In this document: in pieces, positions 1,960-45,290 of the stretch
How the letters are laid out: each line of letters begins with the position of its first letter
How positions within the stretch are numbered: position 1 is the first letter of the stretch
From: an uncultured Nitrospiraceae bacterium
GTDB lineage: Bacteria > Nitrospirota > Nitrospiria > Nitrospirales > Nitrospiraceae
Length of the DNA: 64,000 bases
Assembly (NCBI GenBank): GCA_963706325.1
Contig: CAVPLT010000007.1
Span: 768,001-832,000 of the forward strand
Direction: 5' to 3'
Made by a program: the position numbers and the translations under genes
The notes under the pieces: model-generated
What the model was told of the DNA's origin: nothing
The model's database searches: none
The model's input: the letters and a program-made list of their open reading frames with translations, nothing else

Positions 1960-2001
1960 TCCGTGCTCATTTCCATTTGACAGCAACGCAGAGGCGCACG
2001 T

Positions 2002-2676
2002 TTGGCTGGCACTTCGAACCCGACAACAGGGGGCCCCACCGAAGAGTTCGAGGTGGAGGCCAGATGCTGCGGGTACCGACGCATCGCCGGTCTTGATGAG
2101 GCTGGACGTGGGCCTCTCGCCGGGCCCGTCGTCGCGGCGGCAGTGGTATTGCCGCGTCGCTGTCGGCTCGCTGGATTAAACGATTCCAAACAGGTCGGCG
2201 AGCCGGATCGTATCCGGCTGTTCGCGGAAATCGTTCGTCGGGCAAGGGGCATCGGCATCGGATCCGCGAGTGAAGCGGAGATCGACCGTCTCAATATTCT
2301 TGAAGCGACCCGATTGGCCATGCGGCGCGCTTTGCAAGCGCTCCCGCTCACGCCGGATTTTCTCCTGTTGGACGCTCTGAGTCTTCCCGGGATTTCGGTT
2401 CGACAGCGTCCCATTATCAAAGGCGACGGACTATCATGTTCTATTGCCGCGGCGTCTATTATTGCCAAGGTTACGCGCGATCGATTGATGGTCGAGTATC
2501 ACCGCTGGTACCCTCAATACAATTTTGCCGAACATAAGGGGTACAGTACCCCACAGCATTTGCGACTCCTGCGAGAGCACGGACCCTGTGCGATCCACCG
2601 TTGTACGTTTGCGCCCGTTCAGCATCTTCTTACCGGATCTGTGACAGACTTCGATACGGATTCCTTCGATACGTGA
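2002..2676 (+). CDS. rnhB: Ribonuclease HII
   Basis: AGLDEAGRGPLAGPVVAAAV, NDSK, KGD..SIAAASIIAKVTRD, HKGY motifs. Start (TTG 2002) is uncertain. Confidence 0.95.
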   Translation: MAGTSNPTTGGPTEEFEVEARCCGYRRIAGLDEAGRGPLAGPVVAAAVVLPRRCRLAGLNDSKQVGEPDRIRLFAEIVRRARGIGIGSASEAEIDRLNILEATRLAMRRALQALPLTPDFLLLDALSLPGISVRQRPIIKGDGLSCSIAAASIIAKVTRDRLMVEYHRWYPQYNFAEHKGYSTPQHLRLLREHGPCAIHRCTFAPVQHLLTGSVTDFDTDSFDT

Positions 2677-2693
2677 CAGCCGGCGACCATTCC

Positions 2694-3080
2694 ATGCGAG
2701 ACCCCCGTCGTACATTAGGCGATGAAGGAGAAGGCCGCGCGGAGGCCTTTCTGCGAGCGCAAGGATTTCGAATTCTTGGCCGCAATGTGCGTTCACCATT
2801 AGGCGAACTCGATTTGGTGGCCGATGATCAGGGAGTGCTGGTATTCGTTGAGGTCAAACGGCGGCGCACGGGAGCTTTCGGCGGTGCGATCGAAGCGGTG
2901 GATGCGCGGAAGCGTGCCAAATTGATTCAGCTGGCCGCGCAATATCTTGCCCAACATCGTATTCGAAATCGCGCGTGCCGGTTCGATGTCATATTAATAC
3001 AGGACAATGCCGGGTCTGCAGAGGCCGTGCAGCATATAACGAATGCGTTCGACCTCGATGGGGATGATCTGCGATGGTAG
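2694..3080 (+). CDS. yraN: YraN/UPF0102 family predicted endonuclease
   Basis: GE..A..FL..G..IL.RN, GELDLVA, LVFVEVK, RFDVI, HITNAF. Alternative GTG start at 2673 overlaps the rnhB stop. Confidence 0.9.
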   Translation: MRDPRRTLGDEGEGRAEAFLRAQGFRILGRNVRSPLGELDLVADDQGVLVFVEVKRRRTGAFGGAIEAVDARKRAKLIQLAAQYLAQHRIRNRACRFDVILIQDNAGSAEAVQHITNAFDLDGDDLRW

Positions 3081-3180
3081 GATGGAGGCGAGTGCCATTG
3101 TGGTCGATGTCCTTCCGTCCGCATTAAGGGCAGGGTTTCCGTGCAAACACATAGCTGAACTCCCGTAGTTGTCACGATCC

Positions 3181-3849
3181 ATGATTCAACTCTTCCACGT
3201 CTCAAAATACTATGACCGTCGCTTGGCGCTCTCGGACATTACGCTCGAAGTCGAGAAAGGGGAATTTATTCTCCTCATGGGCCCAAGCGGGGCGGGAAAA
3301 TCAACGCTCTTAAAGTTACTGATCGGCGCAGAGCGACCGGAAGAAGGGCAGATATTCGTGCAGGGCCGCAGCTTGGCAAAGTTGCGATCGTCTGAAATCC
3401 CCTTGCTGCGTCGGAAAGTAGGCGTCGTCCTCCAAGATTTCCATCTCCTGCCCAAGAAAACCGTCTTTGACAACGTCTCATTGCCCCTCCTGGTTCAAGG
3501 CTCCGCCAATGGTGAAATCCGACGGAAAGTGACTGAGGCCCTGCGCGCGGTCGGGCTGGACCATAAGAAGGATCTTTTGCCGCCGGGGCTATCCACCGGC
3601 GAGCAGCAACGAATTTGTATCGCCCGGGCGATCGTGAACGGTCCGATTGTGCTGCTGGCCGACGAACCGACGGGGAATTTGGATCCAGACTTGACGAGCG
3701 AAATCATCGAACTCTTCAAATCGATCAATGCCCGTGGCACAACCGTGATTGTCGCCACGCACGATCCCAACGTATTGGCCCAGGTCAATCGCCGGGTGAT
3801 TACGTTGGACCACGGCAAGCTGGTGTCGAATGAACAGGTGTCTGCATGA
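3181..3849 (+). CDS. ftsE: Cell division ATP-binding protein FtsE
   Basis: Walker A GPSGAGKST, LSTGEQQR signature, LLADEPTGNLD; followed by ftsX with ATGA overlap. Confidence 0.93.
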   Translation: MIQLFHVSKYYDRRLALSDITLEVEKGEFILLMGPSGAGKSTLLKLLIGAERPEEGQIFVQGRSLAKLRSSEIPLLRRKVGVVLQDFHLLPKKTVFDNVSLPLLVQGSANGEIRRKVTEALRAVGLDHKKDLLPPGLSTGEQQRICIARAIVNGPIVLLADEPTGNLDPDLTSEIIELFKSINARGTTVIVATHDPNVLAQVNRRVITLDHGKLVSNEQVSA

Positions 3850-7901: not shown

Positions 7902-8111
7902 GTGGCGACCATTCAAGTTAATGGTGAATATCGCGGGGTCAGCGATGGGCAGACGGTAGCGGCCTTGCTCCATGAATTGGACATTCGGGTCGATCGGGTG
8001 GCTGTCGAGTTGAACCTGGAGATCCTTGATCGAGGTGATTTCGACAGCCGCGGTCTCCGGGAGGGAGATCGGGTGGAAATATTGAGCTTTATCGGGGGGG
8101 GGGCGGGGTAA
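7902..8111 (+). CDS. thiS: Sulfur carrier protein ThiS
   Basis: [31 protein letters not shown]; directly upstream of thiG; ends GGGAG*. Confidence 0.93.
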
Positions 8112-8118
8112 TCTATCT

Positions 8119-8898
8119 ATGGATACGATCAACGATCGGTTAGTGATTGCCGGAAGAGAATTCAAGTCTCGCCTCTGGGTCGGGACTGGAAAATACAAGA
8201 ATTTCGTGGAAACCAAGAAAGCGATCGACGCGTCCGGGGCGGACGTGGTGACCGTCGCGGTTCGTCGGGTGAATATTACGGATCGCTCCCAAGAGAATCT
8301 TCTGGACTATCTTGACCCGAAAAAATATATCATTTTGCCGAACACTGCTGGCTGTTACACGGTGGAGGACGCCGTACGGTATGCCCGTTTGGCGCGAGCG
8401 GCCGGCGTGTCTGATTTGGTGAAGCTGGAAGTCTTGGGCGATGAGAAGACCCTATTTCCCGACACGGCGGGCTTAATCGAAGCCGCGAAGATTCTCATCA
8501 AAGAAGGGTTCATCGTGCTGCCCTATACGAACGACGATCCGATCGTTGCAAGGAAGTTGGTGGACATCGGCTGTCCTGCCGTCATGCCGCTGGCGGCTCC
8601 CATCGGCTCTGGCCTCGGTATCAGGAATCCGTATAATTTGAAAATCATCATGGAGACGGTGAAGGTGCCGATCATCGTGGATGCAGGCGTTGGAACGGCG
8701 TCTGATGCCGCGCTAGCGATGGAATATGGCGCGGACGCGGTTCTTATGAATACGGCTATCGCGGGTGCGCAGGATCCTCTTGCGATGGCTGAAGCCATGA
8801 AATACGCCGTCTGGGCCGGTCGCTTGGCCCATAAAGCGGGACGTATCCCTCGCAAACTCTACGCAACAGCCAGCAGCCCGATTGAGGGCATGCTCTAA
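8119..8898 (+). CDS. thiG: Thiazole synthase
   Basis: [53 protein letters not shown]. Confidence 0.97.
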
Positions 8899-37550: not shown

Positions 37551-38684
37551 ATGCCACGTATCTTAATCGTGACCGGAGAAGCCTCCGGTGACTTGCACGG
37601 CGCCCACTTGGTGAAGGCCTTGAAGCAGCTCTCCCCCTCTTTGCAGATGGTGGGCATCGGTGGTCCCTCGATGCAGGCGGCCGGCGCGGAACTGGTCAAG
37701 GATATCCCGCAAGTGGATGTGATGGGTCTCATCGGCCTGTCAGCGGTGAAGGCGATACTACAGAGGATTTCCAGGGTCAGGCGGCTGATCAGGGGGGAAC
37801 GCTGGGATCTCGTGGTGTTGATCGACAATCCTGGTCTGAATTTTCATTTTGCACGGGTGGCCAAGGCGTGCGGTATCAAAGTGCTGTACTACATTGCGCC
37901 CCAGCTGTGGGCCTGGCGCAAGGGGCGGATGCGCTGGATTCAGCGGCGTGTCGATCACGTGCTCGTGATTCTTCCCTTCGAAGAGCCACTTTATACGCAT
38001 GCGGGCGTGCGTTGTACCTTCGTCGGTAATCCCATTCTGGACGAGGTCGCTCCGTCGTACGACCGCCAAGCGTTGCGCCGGCAGTTCGGCTTGTCGGACG
38101 ACGGCGTGGTGATCGGATTGTTTCCCGGTAGTCGCAAGGGAGAATTGCGCGAACACATGCCATTGCTGTTGGAAACGGCGAAACGCCTCGCGGAGCGCCA
38201 CCCGTCAATGCAATTTATTTTGGCGCAAGCTTCGACGGTTCAAGATGACTTGCTCGGGGAACTAATGCGGGACAGCTCGGTTCCCATTCGAGTTTTTCGC
38301 AACCAGGCCAGCGAAGTCATGGCCGTATCTGATCTGCTGGTCGTCAAATCGGGCACCTCCACGTTGCAGGCGGCGGTGGTGGGAACCCCGATGATCTTAT
38401 TTTATCGGGCTTCCTCCTGGATCACGTATCGTCTCGCGCGCCTGTTGATCCGAGTGCCCTGGATCGGATTGGCCAATCTAGTCGCGGGACGCGGCATCGT
38501 GCCGGAACTGATCCACGACGAGGCCACGCCGGAACGATTGGTGCAAGAAACCGAACGGCTATTGGCAGATTCGCGCGCGTATGAGGAAATGAAGGCCGCC
38601 CTTTTATCGGTCCGACGGGCATTGGGAAACCCAGGCGCCTCACGTCGCGCTGCGGAAGCCGTTCTTGCCGAGTGTGGGCCATGA
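37551..38684 (+). CDS. lpxB: Lipid-A-disaccharide synthase
   Basis: GEASGDLHGA, ID.PG.N, YYIAPQLWAWR, ILPFE, FVGNP, PGSR, SGT.TL, GL.N. Confidence 0.96.
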   Translation: MPRILIVTGEASGDLHGAHLVKALKQLSPSLQMVGIGGPSMQAAGAELVKDIPQVDVMGLIGLSAVKAILQRISRVRRLIRGERWDLVVLIDNPGLNFHFARVAKACGIKVLYYIAPQLWAWRKGRMRWIQRRVDHVLVILPFEEPLYTHAGVRCTFVGNPILDEVAPSYDRQALRRQFGLSDDGVVIGLFPGSRKGELREHMPLLLETAKRLAERHPSMQFILAQASTVQDDLLGELMRDSSVPIRVFRNQASEVMAVSDLLVVKSGTSTLQAAVVGTPMILFYRASSWITYRLARLLIRVPWIGLANLVAGRGIVPELIHDEATPERLVQETERLLADSRAYEEMKAALLSVRRALGNPGASRRAAEAVLAECGP

Positions 38685-40417
38685 AACATTATCTCCGGCT
38701 CATCAAGTATCTGGAACCGTATCGATTTCGATTAGGGGCCGCCTTTGTATGTGCGCTACTCGTAGCAGGTCTCTCGGCCGCCTATGCCTGGTTGGTTCGG
38801 CCGGTGCTCGACGGCTTGTTCATCAGCAAAGATGAAAGTCTGTTGCTGGTGCTTCCCATCGCCATTTTGGCCGTGGCGATCCTCAAGGGAGTATTTAACT
38901 ACGGCCAAAATTATTTGATGAACTATGTCGGGAATCAGGTGATCGGTGACATTCGAGAGCAACTGTTCTCTAAGCTGGTGCGATTGCCGGTTCACTTTCA
39001 CGATACCAATACGTCCGGCCGCTTGGTGTCGCGTGTCATTAACGATGTGAATCAGATGGCCAATGCCGTCACCGGTGTCCTCAAAGATTTGTTCCAGCAA
39101 GGTCTCACGTTCCTGGCGATGATGGGCGTGATCGTCTATCAAAACTGGAAGTTGGCGATGGTCTCGATGGTCGTCGTTCCCCTGTCGGTAGTCACGATGG
39201 TGCGGATGGGCCAGCGGTTGCGGAACCTCGCCACGCGCGGGCAGGAGCGGATGGGCGACATGGCCTCAGCGCTTCAGGAAACGCTGGCCGGTATCCGAAT
39301 GGTGAAGTCGTTCGGAAGGGAAGAGGAAGAGGCCAAACGGTTTCGTGAAAGCAACGATGCCTTCATCCACACCACGATGAAAGCCATCCAGGTGTCCTCT
39401 CTGGGTTCCTCCCACATGGAAGTGATCGGTGTGCTCGGCATCGCGGGGATCATTTGGTATGGCGGATTTCTGGTGATCCATGATGAAATGACCCCCGGCG
39501 CGTTTTTCTCGTTTCTCGCGGCCATGTTCATGGCCTACACGCCGATCAGAAGACTGTCAGGCGCCAATAACACAGTTCAGCAGGCGTTGGCGGCTGCCGA
39601 ACGGGTGTTCGACGTTCTTGATCTCCCGACCGAGCAGGTTGTCAATGGAGGGCATACCGATCTCCCATCGATTTCCCGCTCGCTCGAGTTCAGGCAAGTT
39701 GCTTTTCGGTATGATGGTCAGATCGATGCAGCCCTGACCGGTATCGATTTAATGATTCGCGCAGGCGAGGTCATTGCCTTCGTGGGGAGCAGTGGGAGTG
39801 GAAAAACTACATTAGTGAGTTTGTTGCCGAGATTCTACGAGCCGACCGGTGGACAGATTTTGATCGATGGGGTGGATCTCCGTGCCTGTACTCTACCCTC
39901 GGTGAGGGGACAGATCGGAATTGTGTCCCAGGAAGTCATCCTCTTCGACGATACGGTCCTCAATAACATCGGGTACGGGCGGCAAGGCGCCACCCCTGAA
40001 GATGTGATGCAGGCGGCACAATTGGCGTATGCCCACGATTTCATCCTGCGGATGCCCCAGGGATACGGCACGCTGATCGGGGAGCGCGGTCTGAAATTGT
40101 CGGGCGGCGAGCGCCAGCGAATTGCGATCGCCCGTGCCATTCTCCGCGATCCGCCGGTGTTGATCTTGGATGAAGCCACCTCGGCGTTGGATACGCAGTC
40201 GGAGAGGATCGTGCAATTGGCGCTGGCCAATTTAATGAAGAATCGGACGACGCTGGTCGTCGCCCACCGCCTTTCGACGATTCAAAATGCCGATCGTATC
40301 GTGGTCCTGGATCGAGGCACGATCGTCGAGGTGGGGTCGCATGAAGAGCTGCTGCGAAAGGGCGGCATGTACAAGCGATTGCACGCGATGCAGTTCACCG
40401 ATGCGATTCCGGAGTAA
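38681..40417 (+). CDS. msbA: Lipid A export ABC transporter MsbA
   Basis: ABC TM domain plus GSSGSGKT, LSGGERQRIAIARA, LILDEATSALD, VAHRLST; lpxB-waaA-lpxK context. Confidence 0.92.
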   Translation: MKHYLRLIKYLEPYRFRLGAAFVCALLVAGLSAAYAWLVRPVLDGLFISKDESLLLVLPIAILAVAILKGVFNYGQNYLMNYVGNQVIGDIREQLFSKLVRLPVHFHDTNTSGRLVSRVINDVNQMANAVTGVLKDLFQQGLTFLAMMGVIVYQNWKLAMVSMVVVPLSVVTMVRMGQRLRNLATRGQERMGDMASALQETLAGIRMVKSFGREEEEAKRFRESNDAFIHTTMKAIQVSSLGSSHMEVIGVLGIAGIIWYGGFLVIHDEMTPGAFFSFLAAMFMAYTPIRRLSGANNTVQQALAAAERVFDVLDLPTEQVVNGGHTDLPSISRSLEFRQVAFRYDGQIDAALTGIDLMIRAGEVIAFVGSSGSGKTTLVSLLPRFYEPTGGQILIDGVDLRACTLPSVRGQIGIVSQEVILFDDTVLNNIGYGRQGATPEDVMQAAQLAYAHDFILRMPQGYGTLIGERGLKLSGGERQRIAIARAILRDPPVLILDEATSALDTQSERIVQLALANLMKNRTTLVVAHRLSTIQNADRIVVLDRGTIVEVGSHEELLRKGGMYKRLHAMQFTDAIPE

Positions 40418-40435: not shown

Positions 40436-41160
40436 ATGAGCGGACCTCCGGCACAGACTCCCTCGGCGACTCCTCCTCCGAAACCATCCTTGTTGAAGCG
40501 GGCGACGAATGCCGTGAAGGTCGCGGTGGTACCGCCGGTCGGGTATCATGTGATCCGACTGTTGAGTCGGACGATGACGCTGCGCGTCGAGGGTGGCGAG
40601 CATCTATCCCAGAGATTCGCTGAGGGGAAACGGGTGATTCTCGCTTTTTGGCATGCCCAGCAATTGATGATGCCGTTGGCTTTTCCAGGCTTGGAGGCCC
40701 ATGTGCTGATCAGTCAGCATCGCGATGGAGAATTGATCCGCCGCATCGTGGCGCGGTTCGGCTTAGACGCCGTTCGTGGTTCGAGCACCAGAGGCGGCGC
40801 GGAGGCCTTTCGGAAGCTGATTCGCCTCGGCCGCTCCGGATCCAATTTGGTGCTCACTCCTGATGGACCGAAGGGCCCGCGGCAAATCGCGAAGGTGGGC
40901 GTAGTCCAGTTAGCGAGGGCGACCGGATTGCCGATCGTCCCCATGGCGTTTGGTTGCTCAAAAAAAAACTCTTCGCCAGCTGGGATCGCTTCATCATGCC
41001 CTATCCGTTCACGCGGGGCTTTATCCGGTTTGGGCCGCCGATCGTCATCCCGTCCGACTCGTCCATTGACGACTTGGATCGCCATCGCCGGGAGTTGGAA
41101 GAGACGCTGAACCGCATGACAATCGAAGCCGATGCGGCGGTCCGGCGGGCCGGTCCGTAA
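40436..41160 (+). CDS. DUF374/LpxJ-like lipid A acyltransferase, split by a -1 frame change at an A9 run (40960-40968)
   Basis: Frame 0: AFWH, LISQHRDGE, VRGSSTRGG, TPDGPKGP, LA..TG.PIVP. The family C-terminus (SWDRFIMPYPFTR...FGPPI) is in the -1 frame, which ends at TAA 41158-41160 overlapping the waaA ATG. Confidence 0.85.
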
Positions 41161-42521
41161 TGTGGTACCTGCTGTACAATAGCCTCCTGCTCCTTGCTTC
41201 CCCGGTTATTCTGCTCGTCTTGTTGGCCAAGCAACGATGTCGTCGTGGGCTTCCGCAGCGCTTGGGGTTGGCGGCGGAGCCACCCTCGGACCAGTCCGTC
41301 GACAATCCGGATCAGGTGATCTGGATCCATGCGGTGTCGTTGGGTGAGGTCGTTGCAGTGGCGCCGCTCGTCCGCGATTTGCACAGACGCTATCCTGCGG
41401 CGAGGTTGATCGTCTCGACGGTGACGGAAACAGGACGCGAGGCGCTGGAGCAGCGTCTGGAAGGTATTGCCGAACATCGGTATGCTCCGCTGGATTTTCC
41501 CTGGGTCGTCAACCAGGTCATTGCGCGGATCAATCCTGCCCTCTACGTCTTTGTCGAGACGGAACTCTGGCCGAATCTCCTGCGCAGTTTGCGGCGGCGG
41601 AAGATTCCGTCCATTCTTGTCAACGGACGGTTGTCCACGCGATCGTTCGAGCGGCAGCGTCTGCCGGTGATCCGGAATTTCTATCGCACGATGTTGAACA
41701 TGATCAGCTGTTGCCTCATGCAATCGGAGCGAGACGCCAAGCGGATGGTCGCGCTGGGAGCGGAGCCCCTGCGGGTCCGTTGTACTGGCAATATCAAATT
41801 CGATCAGCCGGTTCCGCTGGTGGAGGCCGGCGGTGGCGCCATCTCGAAAGCCTCGTTGGGGGTGAGCGATCACGAGCAATTGTTGGTGGCTGGGAGCACG
41901 CATCCCGGTGAGGAGGAGGCGCTTGTCACTGCCTATCAGTCGCTCTCTGCGGAGTCGCCCGATCTCCTGTTAGTGCTGGCGCCTCGCCATATCGAGCGGG
42001 CGGCGCAGGTCGAGCAGATGGTCCGAAGTCGAGGACTCACGGTCTCACGCCGCAGTACCGGCGACGGAGGGCAGATGGCCGGGAGCGGACCGCGGGTGCT
42101 CATCCTGGATACGCGGGGCGAATTGGCGCTGCTCTATCGCGATGCCGTAGTGGCCTTTGTGGGTGGGACGTTGGTCCCGATTGGAGGCCACAATCTTTTG
42201 GAGCCGGCGGTATGGGGAAAGCCGGTTTTCTTCGGCCCGCATACTGACCATTGCGCCGACGTGGCGGCGTTGTTGATGAACGCTCAAGGCGGGCGAGTCG
42301 TGCTAGATGCGCAACAGTTTGCGCAGGCCTTGCGGGAGCTCCTCCGCGATCCTGATGGCTTGCGACGGATGGGGCAGGCTGCTCAACAGGTCGTCACGGA
42401 TAACCAGGGCGCGCTCCAACGAACGGCGGACATCATTGCGACGTTTCTTCCTGGACGGGCGGATCTCGCAGCGCCCAGTGCGGCGGAGGGGCTGCGCCAC
42501 TTGTCGAGTCGGCAATCGTGA
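41160..42521 (+). CDS. waaA: Kdo transferase
   Basis: IWIHAVSLGE, YAPLD, ETELWPN, NGRLS, GNIKFD, AGSTH.GE, LAPRH.ER, FVGG.L...GGHN.LEPA. Confidence 0.96.
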   Translation: MWYLLYNSLLLLASPVILLVLLAKQRCRRGLPQRLGLAAEPPSDQSVDNPDQVIWIHAVSLGEVVAVAPLVRDLHRRYPAARLIVSTVTETGREALEQRLEGIAEHRYAPLDFPWVVNQVIARINPALYVFVETELWPNLLRSLRRRKIPSILVNGRLSTRSFERQRLPVIRNFYRTMLNMISCCLMQSERDAKRMVALGAEPLRVRCTGNIKFDQPVPLVEAGGGAISKASLGVSDHEQLLVAGSTHPGEEEALVTAYQSLSAESPDLLLVLAPRHIERAAQVEQMVRSRGLTVSRRSTGDGGQMAGSGPRVLILDTRGELALLYRDAVVAFVGGTLVPIGGHNLLEPAVWGKPVFFGPHTDHCADVAALLMNAQGGRVVLDAQQFAQALRELLRDPDGLRRMGQAAQQVVTDNQGALQRTADIIATFLPGRADLAAPSAAEGLRHLSSRQS

Positions 42522-43600
42522 TGACGACTCAGCTGTCGAGGTGGTTGGGTATCTGTTTGCGCTGGGTTGGAGCGCCCTACGAAGTAGCGGCTCGTGCTCG
42601 GCTGTGGGGTTACGAGCAGGGGTGGTTCCGCACGCAGCGCTTGACTCGCCCTGTGATCAGCGTCGGGAATCTCACGGTAGGAGGAACGGGAAAAACACCT
42701 GTAGTCATGCATCTAGTCGAACGGTTGACGGCGCAAGGAATGCGAGTAGCAGTCTTAAGTCGCGGGTATCGGCGTCGGAGTCAAGCACCGCAGCTCTTAG
42801 TGTCAGACGGTCAACGCGTCCTTATCGGTCCGGAGGAAGCCGGAGATGAGCCCTACTTGATCGCACGCCGCTGTCCTCAGGCTGTGGTTGCCGTGGGCGC
42901 TGATCGGTATGCGCTGGGCCAATGGGTGCTAAGTCGGCTGCCGGTCGATTGTTTTCTGTTGGATGACGGCTTTCAGCATGTGCAACTGCATCGCGATCTC
43001 AATCTCTTGCTGGTGGATGCGACAGATCTCAAGGGCATTCAGGCCGCATTGCCGATCGGGCGCTTGCGGGAACCGCTTTCGGCTGCGGTCCGCGCCACGG
43101 CCATTGTGATTACCAGGGTGAATCAAGCGAAGGATGCGGAGGCTGTGTGGAGTCGTCTCCTCCAGGCCAACGGCTCGCTTCCGCCGCCGTTGCTGGTGGG
43201 ATTTCCTGCCGATGATTTTCGACGGGTAGGCGGAGACGAGCAGCGCCCACTGGACGCGTTTCGTGGCTGCTCGGCCGTCATCTTCAGCGGGATCGGCAAT
43301 GCCGGATCTTTCCATGCATTGGTGGAAGGCCTGGGTGTGACGGTGGTGGAGACTCTGGCATTTCCCGACCATGTGCATTATACCGATGGCATGCTGAAAA
43401 CCATTCGAGCCAAGGCACAGGCCTGTGGCGCGGATCTGTTAATGACGACGGAGAAGGATGCCGACAAGGTGGCGCGTTTTCTGGGCTCAACTGATTTCTG
43501 TTGGGCCGTCAGGCTCCGGACAGAGATTCTGAGGGGACAGGATCAGCTGGAGCAGTTGTTACGACTCGATCCACAGGTGACAAAGGCAGGCCATGCGTAA
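42518..43600 (+). CDS. lpxK: Tetraacyldisaccharide 4'-kinase
   Basis: PVISVGNLTVGGTGKTP, LSRGY, GDEP, LDDGFQH, G.LRE, FPDH, TTEKD. Confidence 0.96.
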   Translation: MMTTQLSRWLGICLRWVGAPYEVAARARLWGYEQGWFRTQRLTRPVISVGNLTVGGTGKTPVVMHLVERLTAQGMRVAVLSRGYRRRSQAPQLLVSDGQRVLIGPEEAGDEPYLIARRCPQAVVAVGADRYALGQWVLSRLPVDCFLLDDGFQHVQLHRDLNLLLVDATDLKGIQAALPIGRLREPLSAAVRATAIVITRVNQAKDAEAVWSRLLQANGSLPPPLLVGFPADDFRRVGGDEQRPLDAFRGCSAVIFSGIGNAGSFHALVEGLGVTVVETLAFPDHVHYTDGMLKTIRAKAQACGADLLMTTEKDADKVARFLGSTDFCWAVRLRTEILRGQDQLEQLLRLDPQVTKAGHA

Positions 43601-45290
43601 GGAAGGCATTCATCGCATCGTCGTCCGCGGCCCCAATTGGCTGGGGGACGCCGTGATGTGTGAGCCCGCCTTGAGCCAGGTGCGCGCGATTTTTCCTCAG
43701 GCCGAGATTACGCTCCTTGTCAAGCCGGCGATTGCCGATCTGCTGGCGCAGCATCCCGCAGTGAATCGGACGCTGGTGTACGACGACCGAGGACGCCATG
43801 CAGGCCTCACCGGTAAATGGACGCTGGCCGGCGTGCTGCGCCGCCATCGATTCGACCTCGCCATTTTGTTTCAGAATGCGTTTGAGGCCGCCTTGATTAG
43901 TTTCCTGGCAGGCATCTCTCGACGACTCGGGTATGCGACAGATGGCCGGAGCCTGTTGCTGACGGACCCCGTGTCCGTACCGCCACGAAACGGCCAGAAG
44001 CATCAAGTCACATACTATTGGGATTTGTTGAAGCCGCTTGGGGGACATGGCCCAGCGCCGGCGCCGCGCCTGTTTGTCACCCCGGAAGAATCTGCTGCGA
44101 TCACCAAGCGATTGGTTGATGCCGGGATCGGCACGTCGGATCCGGTCATCGGCGTCAATCCCGGCTCGACCTATGGCCATGCTAAACGGTGGCTGCCGGA
44201 ACGGTATGCCGAGGTCGTCAATCGCGTGCTGAACGATATGCAGGCTCAAACCGGCGCCAAAGTCGGCGTGGCCATTCTCGGGGCCCCGGGCGAAGAACCG
44301 TTGGGGCATGCGATCGCCAAAAAAATTAAGACGCGCACGGTCGTCTGTTCCGGTCAGACCACGGTGCGGGAATTGATGGCGCTTGTGAAGCGCTGCCAGT
44401 TGTTTCTGACGAACGATACGGGGCCCATGCATGTGGCCGCGGCGTTCAAGGTGCCGCTCGTGGCGGTGTTCGGGCCGACCGATTGGCAGACCACCTCCCC
44501 CTATGGCGTCGAGGCGAAACTCGTCCGTCAGCCGGTCTCCTGTGCCCCTTGTTTGCTGCGGGAATGTCCTATCGATCACCGCTGTATGACGGGCGTGACG
44601 GTAGACCAAGTACACGGCGCCGCCCTTGAGCATCTGCCGCTGGCGGCCCCTTTCCTGGCATCAGATCCAATGTCTTCCAAAGGCAGCATTGATCAGGTCT
44701 CACTGCCGGGAGTCACGGTATTTTTGGATCGGGACGGCACGCTCAACGAAGACACCGGCTACATCAAATCTCCTGATGAGCTGACATTGCTGCCTGGAGT
44801 GGGAGCAGCGCTGGCCCGGCTCAAGCACGCCGGTGTGCGCCTCGTCGTCGTGACGAATCAGTCTGGACTGGGGCGCGGATACTTTGACGGCAAGGATCTT
44901 GATGCGATTCACAGCAAGCTGCGACTCTTGCTGGCCGAGGATAAGGTGGCGCTCGACGGGTTGTATTTTTGTCCCCATCATCCGGATGATCGGTGCAATT
45001 GTCGCAAGCCGGCTCCCGGCATGATCGATCGGGCGGTTGCCGAATTGAAGGTGGACTTGGGTCGGGCCTATGTCATTGGAGACAGCGCGCGAGACATCGA
45101 GCTGGCCAAACAGGTCGGCGCGCAGAGCCTGTTGGTCCTGACCGGCCCATCGGGGAGAGAGACATTAGCCGATCTGACCGATCGAGGTCTGGCGCCGGAC
45201 CATGTAGCCGATGCCTTGCCGCAAGCGGTAGAGTGGATACTCGCCCATGCGACCTGTAGGCCGGTTGCTTCACAGGCACATCCCTGCTAG
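43593..45290 (+). CDS. waaF: Heptosyltransferase II (GT9, WaaF-like) fused to D,D-heptose 1,7-bisphosphate phosphatase (GmhB)
   Basis: N-part: PNWLGDAVM, NPG..YG.AKRW, NDTGPMHVAAA, FGPT, C.PC..R.CP..H.CM. C-part: VFLDRDGTLN, VVTNQSG, CPHHP...C.CRKP.PGM, IGDS..D. One ORF with no stop in the linker. Confidence 0.9.
   Translation: MRKEGIHRIVVRGPNWLGDAVMCEPALSQVRAIFPQAEITLLVKPAIADLLAQHPAVNRTLVYDDRGRHAGLTGKWTLAGVLRRHRFDLAILFQNAFEAALISFLAGISRRLGYATDGRSLLLTDPVSVPPRNGQKHQVTYYWDLLKPLGGHGPAPAPRLFVTPEESAAITKRLVDAGIGTSDPVIGVNPGSTYGHAKRWLPERYAEVVNRVLNDMQAQTGAKVGVAILGAPGEEPLGHAIAKKIKTRTVVCSGQTTVRELMALVKRCQLFLTNDTGPMHVAAAFKVPLVAVFGPTDWQTTSPYGVEAKLVRQPVSCAPCLLRECPIDHRCMTGVTVDQVHGAALEHLPLAAPFLASDPMSSKGSIDQVSLPGVTVFLDRDGTLNEDTGYIKSPDELTLLPGVGAALARLKHAGVRLVVVTNQSGLGRGYFDGKDLDAIHSKLRLLLAEDKVALDGLYFCPHHPDDRCNCRKPAPGMIDRAVAELKVDLGRAYVIGDSARDIELAKQVGAQSLLVLTGPSGRETLADLTDRGLAPDHVADALPQAVEWILAHATCRPVASQAHPC

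Follow-up and report, generated by a model that had tools for sequence, protein, structure and literature searches.

A conserved frame break at a nine-adenine tract in lpxJ of Nitrospirota and other phyla: a candidate recoding site in lipid A biosynthesis

The lpxJ locus and its two reading frames

The window (the whole stretch of DNA analysed, 64,000 nucleotides) comes from an uncultured Nitrospiraceae bacterium (assembly GCA_963706325.1, contig CAVPLT010000007.1, forward-strand positions 768,001 to 832,000). It carries the genes lpxI, an oxidoreductase gene, lpxB, msbA, lpxJ, waaA, lpxK and two heptosyltransferase genes in this order, assigned with Pfam and named after their families. The preliminary description of this DNA, made from the letters alone, had recognised a DUF374 gene between msbA and waaA, and Pfam bears this out both in the neighbours (Table 1) and in a PF04028/DUF374 match at residues 83-149 (E 3e-28, 97.5 bits against a cut-off of 26.8). 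It is the single DUF374 match in the genome; the genome profile search finds one LpxL and no LpxM above the cut-off. A heptosyltransferase domain (GT9) is fused to a HAD-family phosphatase domain at window positions 43593-45290, which we take to be probably a waaF-gmhB fusion.

The lpxJ gene is split between two frames at a run of nine adenines (A9). Frame 0 leaves the family sequence at the run, while the -1 frame is open across A9 to a stop at 41158-41160 that overlaps the waaA ATG at 41160, and one added base at A9 gives a 241-aa product with Trp-Asp at 183-184. The sequence and the ORF coordinates thus agree with what had been read from the letters: an A9 run at 40960-40968 in its serine-lysine context, a frame-0 ORF of 224 aa stopping at 41110, and a product of about 241 aa, made by a -1 shift or an extra base, whose TAA lies over the waaA ATG. 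The run is the sole A/T run of at least nine in the window and one of 11 in the 4.2 Mb genome; the other ten showed no similar frame break (eight were inspected, two were judged by frame lengths only). A G10 run lies at window positions 8094-8103, shortly upstream of an ORF at 8119-8898 that we take to be thiG-like by sequence, where it could affect the ribosome-binding region or vary.

Table 1. Features of the lpxJ region (window coordinates)
Feature	Position	Strand	Basis or remark
msbA-type lipid A flippase gene	38672..40417	+	PF00664 + PF00005; upstream neighbour
lpxJ frame-0 ORF, 224 aa, with about 176 residues of the family followed by an off-frame tail that ends in TGA at 41108-41110	40436..41110	+	ORF list and Pfam
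Trp72-His73, probable equivalent of W60/H61 of Rickettsia LpxJ	40649..40654	+	motif and spacing
Asp143 of the PDG motif, probable equivalent of D132 of the proposed catalytic dyad	40862..40864	+	motif and spacing
Candidate A9 slippage site, joining the two frames by one extra base or a -1 shift	40960..40968	+	sequence
lpxJ 3' part in the -1 frame, the family C-terminus, TAA at 41158-41160	40969..41160	+	comparison with an in-frame orthologue
Trp183-Asp184, probable equivalent of W172/D173, which are essential in Rickettsia LpxJ; translated only once the frame has changed	40981..40986	+	motif and spacing
TAATG stop/start overlap with waaA; a trait of the window's genus, not general	41158..41162	+	sequence
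waaA Kdo transferase gene	41160..42521	+	PF04413; downstream neighbour

The position of the break probably matters for the enzyme. In Rickettsia typhi LpxJ, W60, H61, D86, D132, W172 and D173 are each required (PMC6148475). The equivalents in the window are W72, H73, D97, D143, W183 and D184, placed by motif and a constant offset of 11-12 and not by alignment to the Rickettsia sequence itself, and the last two fall 3' of the break. An AlphaFold model (pLDDT 87.5) was made for an in-frame orthologue (locus L047), which aligns to both halves of the window's lpxJ and is 58% identical to its 5' half. In this model, which matches PlsC, GPAT, PatA and LpxM folds, the break site separates two strands, and the part beyond it forms three strands and a helix of 28 residues. 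The gene resembles the lpxJ of Rickettsia, Helicobacter, Campylobacter and Wolinella in its PF04028 match and lipid A operon setting, in having W72/H73, H95/D97, D143 and W183/D184 all at matching spacing, and, as far as the modelled orthologue goes, in a PlsC/GPAT/PatA/LpxM-type acyltransferase fold. It differs in the frame break, of which there is no mention for those species in the portion of the LpxJ paper covered here (PMC6148475). The 241-aa product is likely to be a 3'-secondary lipid A acyltransferase, judging from its family, its operon and the absence of an LpxM above the cut-off. The unslipped product, which lacks the essential Trp-Asp pair and the C-terminal fold, is probably inactive.

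Could the gene work as it is written? It is highly improbable that there is no recoding and that either the truncated N-terminal product suffices or the 3' part is translated separately, the enzyme assembling from two pieces. The frame-0 product does hold His73 and Asp143, and the -1 frame of the window has a TTG immediately ahead of the run, but W172A and D173A abolish Rickettsia LpxJ activity (PMC6148475), and 128 of the 151 broken genes described below are without a start codon within 20 codons in the 3' frame. A promoter scan gave no promoter-like site, and the invariance of the A-run would be left unexplained.

Spread of the break and selection on both halves

A search of relatives matched 60 of 61 genomes, and in all of the 30 best loci the two halves of lpxJ match in frames differing by -1, an offset that places the break beyond chance. 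A draw across the phylum matched 139 of 201 genomes. The 134 phylum loci compared (the 30 top-ranking ones from either search plus a further 74 picked from the lists of matches) yielded 128 that could be classified; of the other six, three lie at contig ends and three are weak, distant matches. In the family of the window (coded f1) the break occurs in 55/55 classified genomes, several of them single-contig. Elsewhere in the phylum the number of broken among classified genomes is 11/12 in f2, 8/8 in f3, 2/2 in f5, 1/1 in f6, 4/4 in f7, 11/12 in f8, 2/2 in f12 and 1/1 in f19, and none in f4 (0/5), f11 (0/7), f14 (0/3), f15 (0/2) and f26 (0/1).

The break extends to other phyla. Named records that share the junction are mostly Nitrospira and other Nitrospirota, and a pattern scan that required A9 found at least 120 loci; 114 distinct junctions among the matches listed could be classified, of which 108 are broken and 6 are in frame. 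Their labels include Syntrophorhabdia, Acidobacteriota, Myxococcota and Deltaproteobacteria (these are MAG labels, some possibly misbinned). Homology sampling outside the phylum was centred on four records chosen for carrying the run, so its figures describe spread and not frequency across bacteria: 27 of the 30 best loci are broken in the class of a Syntrophorhabdus record (60 genomes matched), 17/27 in the class of an Acidobacteriota record and 9/18 in the phylum of an unclassified bacterium, and the 29 new loci from the phylum of a Deltaproteobacteria record comprise 2 broken, 24 in frame and 3 unclassified.

In total, 151 of 217 homology-selected distinct junctions are broken at the same place and 66 are in frame. 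Related genomes are not independent, and tree counts correct for this only partly. On a FastTree phylogeny of 178 representatives the broken and in-frame states change 16 times; the deep branches are weak, so one origin with losses is indistinguishable from several origins or transfer. One in-frame gene (L047, G040:C1), with a G interrupting the A-run, is nested among broken genes and has the look of a revertant, its frame regained and its signal lost at the same time. Nitrospira-labelled in-frame LpxJ proteins also exist (e.g. P0062, P0076), with Gln, Arg or His replacing the third Lys, so the family has in-frame branches beyond the genome sample. These in-frame lineages indicate that the device is dispensable.

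Both sides of the run are under selection. Among 34 loci of the window's genus, dN/dS is 0.049 upstream of the run. Downstream of it the value depends on the frame, at 0.21 for the -1 frame against 0.92 for frame 0. In each of the 151 broken genes at least 54 codons follow the conserved Trp before the -1 frame closes, and the frame-0 tail varies in length from 4 to 92 codons. A conserved break, selection on both frames and the existence of in-frame orthologues are the comparative marks of a programmed site, and on sequence comparison lpxJ has all three. The comparison proposed in the preliminary description, which looked for the same break at a conserved A-run with both halves under selection, has thus come out in favour of programming, with 151/217 junctions in several phyla.

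Homopolymers are error-prone, which makes an assembly error or a recent pseudogene a candidate, and in the read archives compared no contig of this strain bridges the run. Four of the 22 listed runs were compared as Logan contigs. The identical-strain contig in run X1 ends at 40960 and the next starts at 41006, leaving A9 unbridged; in X1 and X5, four short stretches belonging to other strains span the A9 site without gaps. The RNA run X19 yielded no matching contig. The RNA run X20 holds a 151-nt contig of another organism that is seemingly one base shorter at the run, judged from a loose end only, and this contig is left out of the evidence. Metagenome contigs were also scanned with a pattern in which the Ser codon and a downstream motif were fixed and 7-13 bases were allowed between them: exactly A9 was found in 119/119 of the matches listed (at least 119, in 107 distinct contexts). 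Against error or decay stand the same one-base break in 55/55 classified family genomes and in other phyla, the dN/dS of 0.05 upstream and 0.21 downstream, and the open 3' frame in every broken gene. Taken as a general explanation, error or decay is contradicted by these data and is extremely improbable. We are highly confident that the break is programmed, on comparative grounds. The break and the run are kept under selection in related and distant bacteria, so a working LpxJ is very probably made by slippage at the run.

Run length and the mechanism of recoding

The junctions obey a rule of run length. All 151 broken junctions have 9-11 A's, never A8, and 63 of the 66 in-frame orthologues have eight or fewer. 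Around a core of A8, the broken junctions carry an extra A on the 5' side only (71), on the 3' side only (57) or on both (23), and none has neither. The bases that a single A_AAA_AAA shift leaves free are A at both positions in 52/52 and 38/38 tree representatives, and ten two-fold control sites changed 7-15 times in the first of these subsets and 4-13 times in the second. Nor is this invariance a protein constraint, since in 57 colinear in-frame orthologues the three columns hold Lys in only 24, 25 and 33, with AAA and AAG about even.

A matched control points the same way. Among 30 genus genomes the Lys-Lys-Asn stretch of atpH contains A9 just once, the other 29 having runs of 2-8 there, whereas lpxJ has A9 in 35/35 genus loci, using TCA (about 11% of the genome's Ser codons). 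The in-frame A9 inside atpH belongs to the genome of the window itself (L484:867-875; G000:C1:750766).

In living cells, slippage on runs of nine A/T is efficient, and the hybrid within the polymerase measures 9-10 bp (PMC5009743). Conservation follows the length of the run (nine or more) rather than one heptamer, and no Shine-Dalgarno (SD) or hairpin stimulator was found. Transcriptional slippage is for these reasons the mechanism we favour over -1 ribosomal frameshifting, with reasonable though not high confidence. RNA polymerase would realign on the A9 tract, similar in length to its RNA-DNA hybrid, and would add one untemplated A in a fraction of lpxJ transcripts. Ordinary translation of the slipped mRNAs would give the 241-aa LpxJ, and unslipped mRNAs would give the product without the Trp-Asp pair and the C-terminal fold.

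The search for stimulators covered both sides of the run. Upstream pairing with the anti-SD is weaker than in the control, at -0.9 vs -4.7 kcal/mol (50/191 broken genes), and no stimulatory hairpin was found on either side, folding z being about 0 against synonymous shuffles in 74 representatives (pseudoknots lie outside this folding). Rfam has no match there. One candidate, a hairpin 5' of the run in the window, was rejected: its signal against dinucleotide shuffles (z -0.97 in broken genes vs -0.10) is gone against synonymous shuffles (-0.14 vs -0.10), and the 74 representatives have no consensus structure. The earlier statement that the site has no convincing hairpin or upstream SD therefore stands.

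Ribosomes could make the same joint by themselves. A tandem slip of tRNA-Lys at A_AAA_AAA or A_AAA_AAC, made more efficient by the longer run instead of by a stimulator, is a less likely reading that deserves weight, and it may act alongside transcriptional slippage. The in-phase A_AAA_AAA heptamer, correctly noted at A9 in the preliminary description, is present in frame 0 of 151/151 broken junctions in both run arrangements. All broken junctions are one base short, and the direction of the shift is always -1; Antonov et al. 2013 took a uniform direction as pointing to ribosomal frameshifting, and both directions as the mark of transcriptional slippage, so that by their criterion this uniformity counts against the transcriptional reading (PMC3711429). 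Modest extra synonymous conservation is also seen 3' of the run in the genus: four-fold heterozygosity is 0.25 just 3' of the run and 0.47 upstream, and the Leu, Ala and Ser codons at window positions 40969-40983 are the same in 34-35 of 35 loci. Neither feature is kept across phyla; the reduced variation could be a local signal and would then speak against slippage by the polymerase. On the other side, the two bases per class that one heptamer would leave free are invariant, and stimulators were not found by the SD and folding searches. A_AAA_AAG is the strongest shift motif in E. coli (PMC4066793), yet it occurs in only 6 of the 151 broken junctions, always within A9, and no A6-A8 or A_AAA_AAG-only site is present in the 151 junctions or the 119 metagenome matches listed.

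Three in-frame orthologues from the class of the Syntrophorhabdus record (L259, L274 and L276) keep A9, with an extra base just downstream of the run; slippage in these genes would lower, not raise, the full-length product. Together with the in-frame A9 in atpH they suggest that slippage at A9 may be modest. Among the Logan contigs compared, those of the window's strain do not span the run and no transcript with an added A was seen, a point against the transcriptional reading.

A change in the DNA itself is very unlikely. Slipped-strand mispairing would turn A9 (off) into A10 (on) in part of the population and so vary lipid A acylation, in keeping with the effect of lpxJ on the cell surface. 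In-frame forms one A longer do occur, in 3 of 114 pattern-selected loci listed (L155, L204, L236), and three lysines stand at the site in 23 of 76 in-frame proteins scored among 120 listed database matches; the query was an in-frame protein, which ranks one-base-longer forms first, and the 23 may stem from an allele, a transcript or an assembly error. The length of the run nevertheless hardly varies, being exactly A9 in 119/119 metagenome matches listed, where 7-13 bases were allowed, and A9 in 35/35 genus loci. Purifying selection on the 3' half would be hard to sustain in a gene that is nearly always off, and no indel is listed in the Logan contigs compared (contigs drop rare variants). Transcriptional slippage, ribosomal frameshifting and phase variation had been held equally plausible at the outset; transcriptional slippage keeps its place as an option, while the equality has gone, run-length conservation favouring transcription and constant length opposing phase variation. 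The peptide LFASWDR, proposed earlier as a sign of the -1 frame, would show recoding without separating these mechanisms.

Purpose, precedents and the downstream gene

On the reading by transcriptional slippage, the simplest and most likely purpose is that of a fixed attenuator: the site would hold LpxJ below the level of msbA and waaA, with which it is co-transcribed. The preliminary description had likewise supposed that recoding may set how much full-length enzyme is made. The site may instead respond to the physiology of the cell, or be a neutral state that has become entrenched. More tentatively, the site could be an old lipid A recoding switch common to Nitrospirota, Syntrophorhabdia and some Acidobacteriota, in which polymerase slippage at the nine-A tract sets the share of active LpxJ, hence the acylation state of lipid A, possibly adjusted by nucleotide pools, elongation rate or transcription-translation coupling. 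If true, outer-membrane composition would be regulated by transcriptional slippage in mid-gene, at a site whose breadth is matched in cellular genes mainly by prfB. Conserved recoding in non-mobile bacterial genes is rare, and lpxJ belongs to a core envelope pathway in a major nitrifier lineage and several phyla. The two codon phases, the repeated gains and losses (16 changes in the 178-protein tree) and the revertants form a natural experiment, which makes a regulatory role, a fixed dosage device and an entrenched neutral state directly testable. There is also a practical side: many close relatives of the in-frame orthologue stand in protein databases as proteins of 163-164 aa covering 68% of the query (among 120 listed matches), so that truncated forms of lpxJ have been deposited and database C-termini are wrong or missing.

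The kind of recoding proposed has precedents. In mxiE of Shigella flexneri two frames are joined at a homopolymer, and the added base gives the longer, canonical product (PMC1088944); the slippage also affects the downstream gene (PMC5009743). In tssM of Citrobacter rodentium and Yersinia, transcriptional slippage likewise gives the full-length protein, and both forms are needed (PMC4256274), whereas the frame-0 tail of lpxJ is unconstrained. Both mxiE and tssM are secretion-system genes of a few related species in which slippage was demonstrated; lpxJ belongs to lipid A biosynthesis, its site extends across several phyla, and slippage there is argued from sequence. Thermus thermophilus dnaX offers a slippage-prone A9 in a chromosomal housekeeping gene (PMC1088944), and two-ORF dnaX genes with 9-10 A's have also been read as slippage-prone. 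The templated frame of Thermus dnaX encodes the full-length subunit and slippage yields a second, functional, shorter one (PMC1088944), whereas the templated frame of lpxJ lacks essential residues and its short form has no evident role.

The likeness to prfB lies in a widely conserved, patchily lost recoding site that is needed for a full-length chromosomal product. At prfB the ribosome shifts by +1 at a stop codon, stimulated by an SD sequence, and the gene is known to regulate itself. The lpxJ signal, unlike that of prfB, is a homopolymer for which the searches above gave no stimulator and no feedback is known. The literature covered, which takes in neither Sharma et al. 2011 nor the GeneTack database nor supplementary file 1 of Antonov 2013, holds no description of the lpxJ site. 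The main text of Antonov 2013 names DUF111 and DUF772 and, in the part covered, no DUF374, which is also absent from its supplementary file 2; file 1 may list one (PMC3711429). What is new here is a broadly conserved, very probable recoding site in lpxJ; its kind of recoding is already known.

Translational coupling to waaA through the TAATG overlap had also been put forward. The overlap is present in the window, and among the 183 broken loci followed by waaA the exact TAATG occurs in 38, of which 35 belong to the window's genus. Specificity to broken genes did not hold up: some lpxJ-waaA overlap is found in 19/38 in-frame and 90/183 broken loci (starts were assigned automatically, and two loci are without one). 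Of the loci followed by waaA, 171 broken and 28 in-frame ones are immediately preceded by msbA. Gene order and overlap being alike in broken and in-frame genes, the comparison lends no support to coupling to waaA as the purpose of the site.

Candidate fusions with the neighbouring genes were also encountered. Two apparent msbA-lpxJ fusions (L098 and L099) proved to be off-frame read-through. In one genome (L037, G053:C70, about 1970-3450) the frame of the lpxJ 3' half leads straight on into WaaA, staying open for 492 codons beyond the Trp, and the place where WaaA usually begins is without a start codon, so that the slip would open the way to an LpxJ-WaaA fusion. If this is real, WaaA in that genome would have to be made through the slip or from an internal start.
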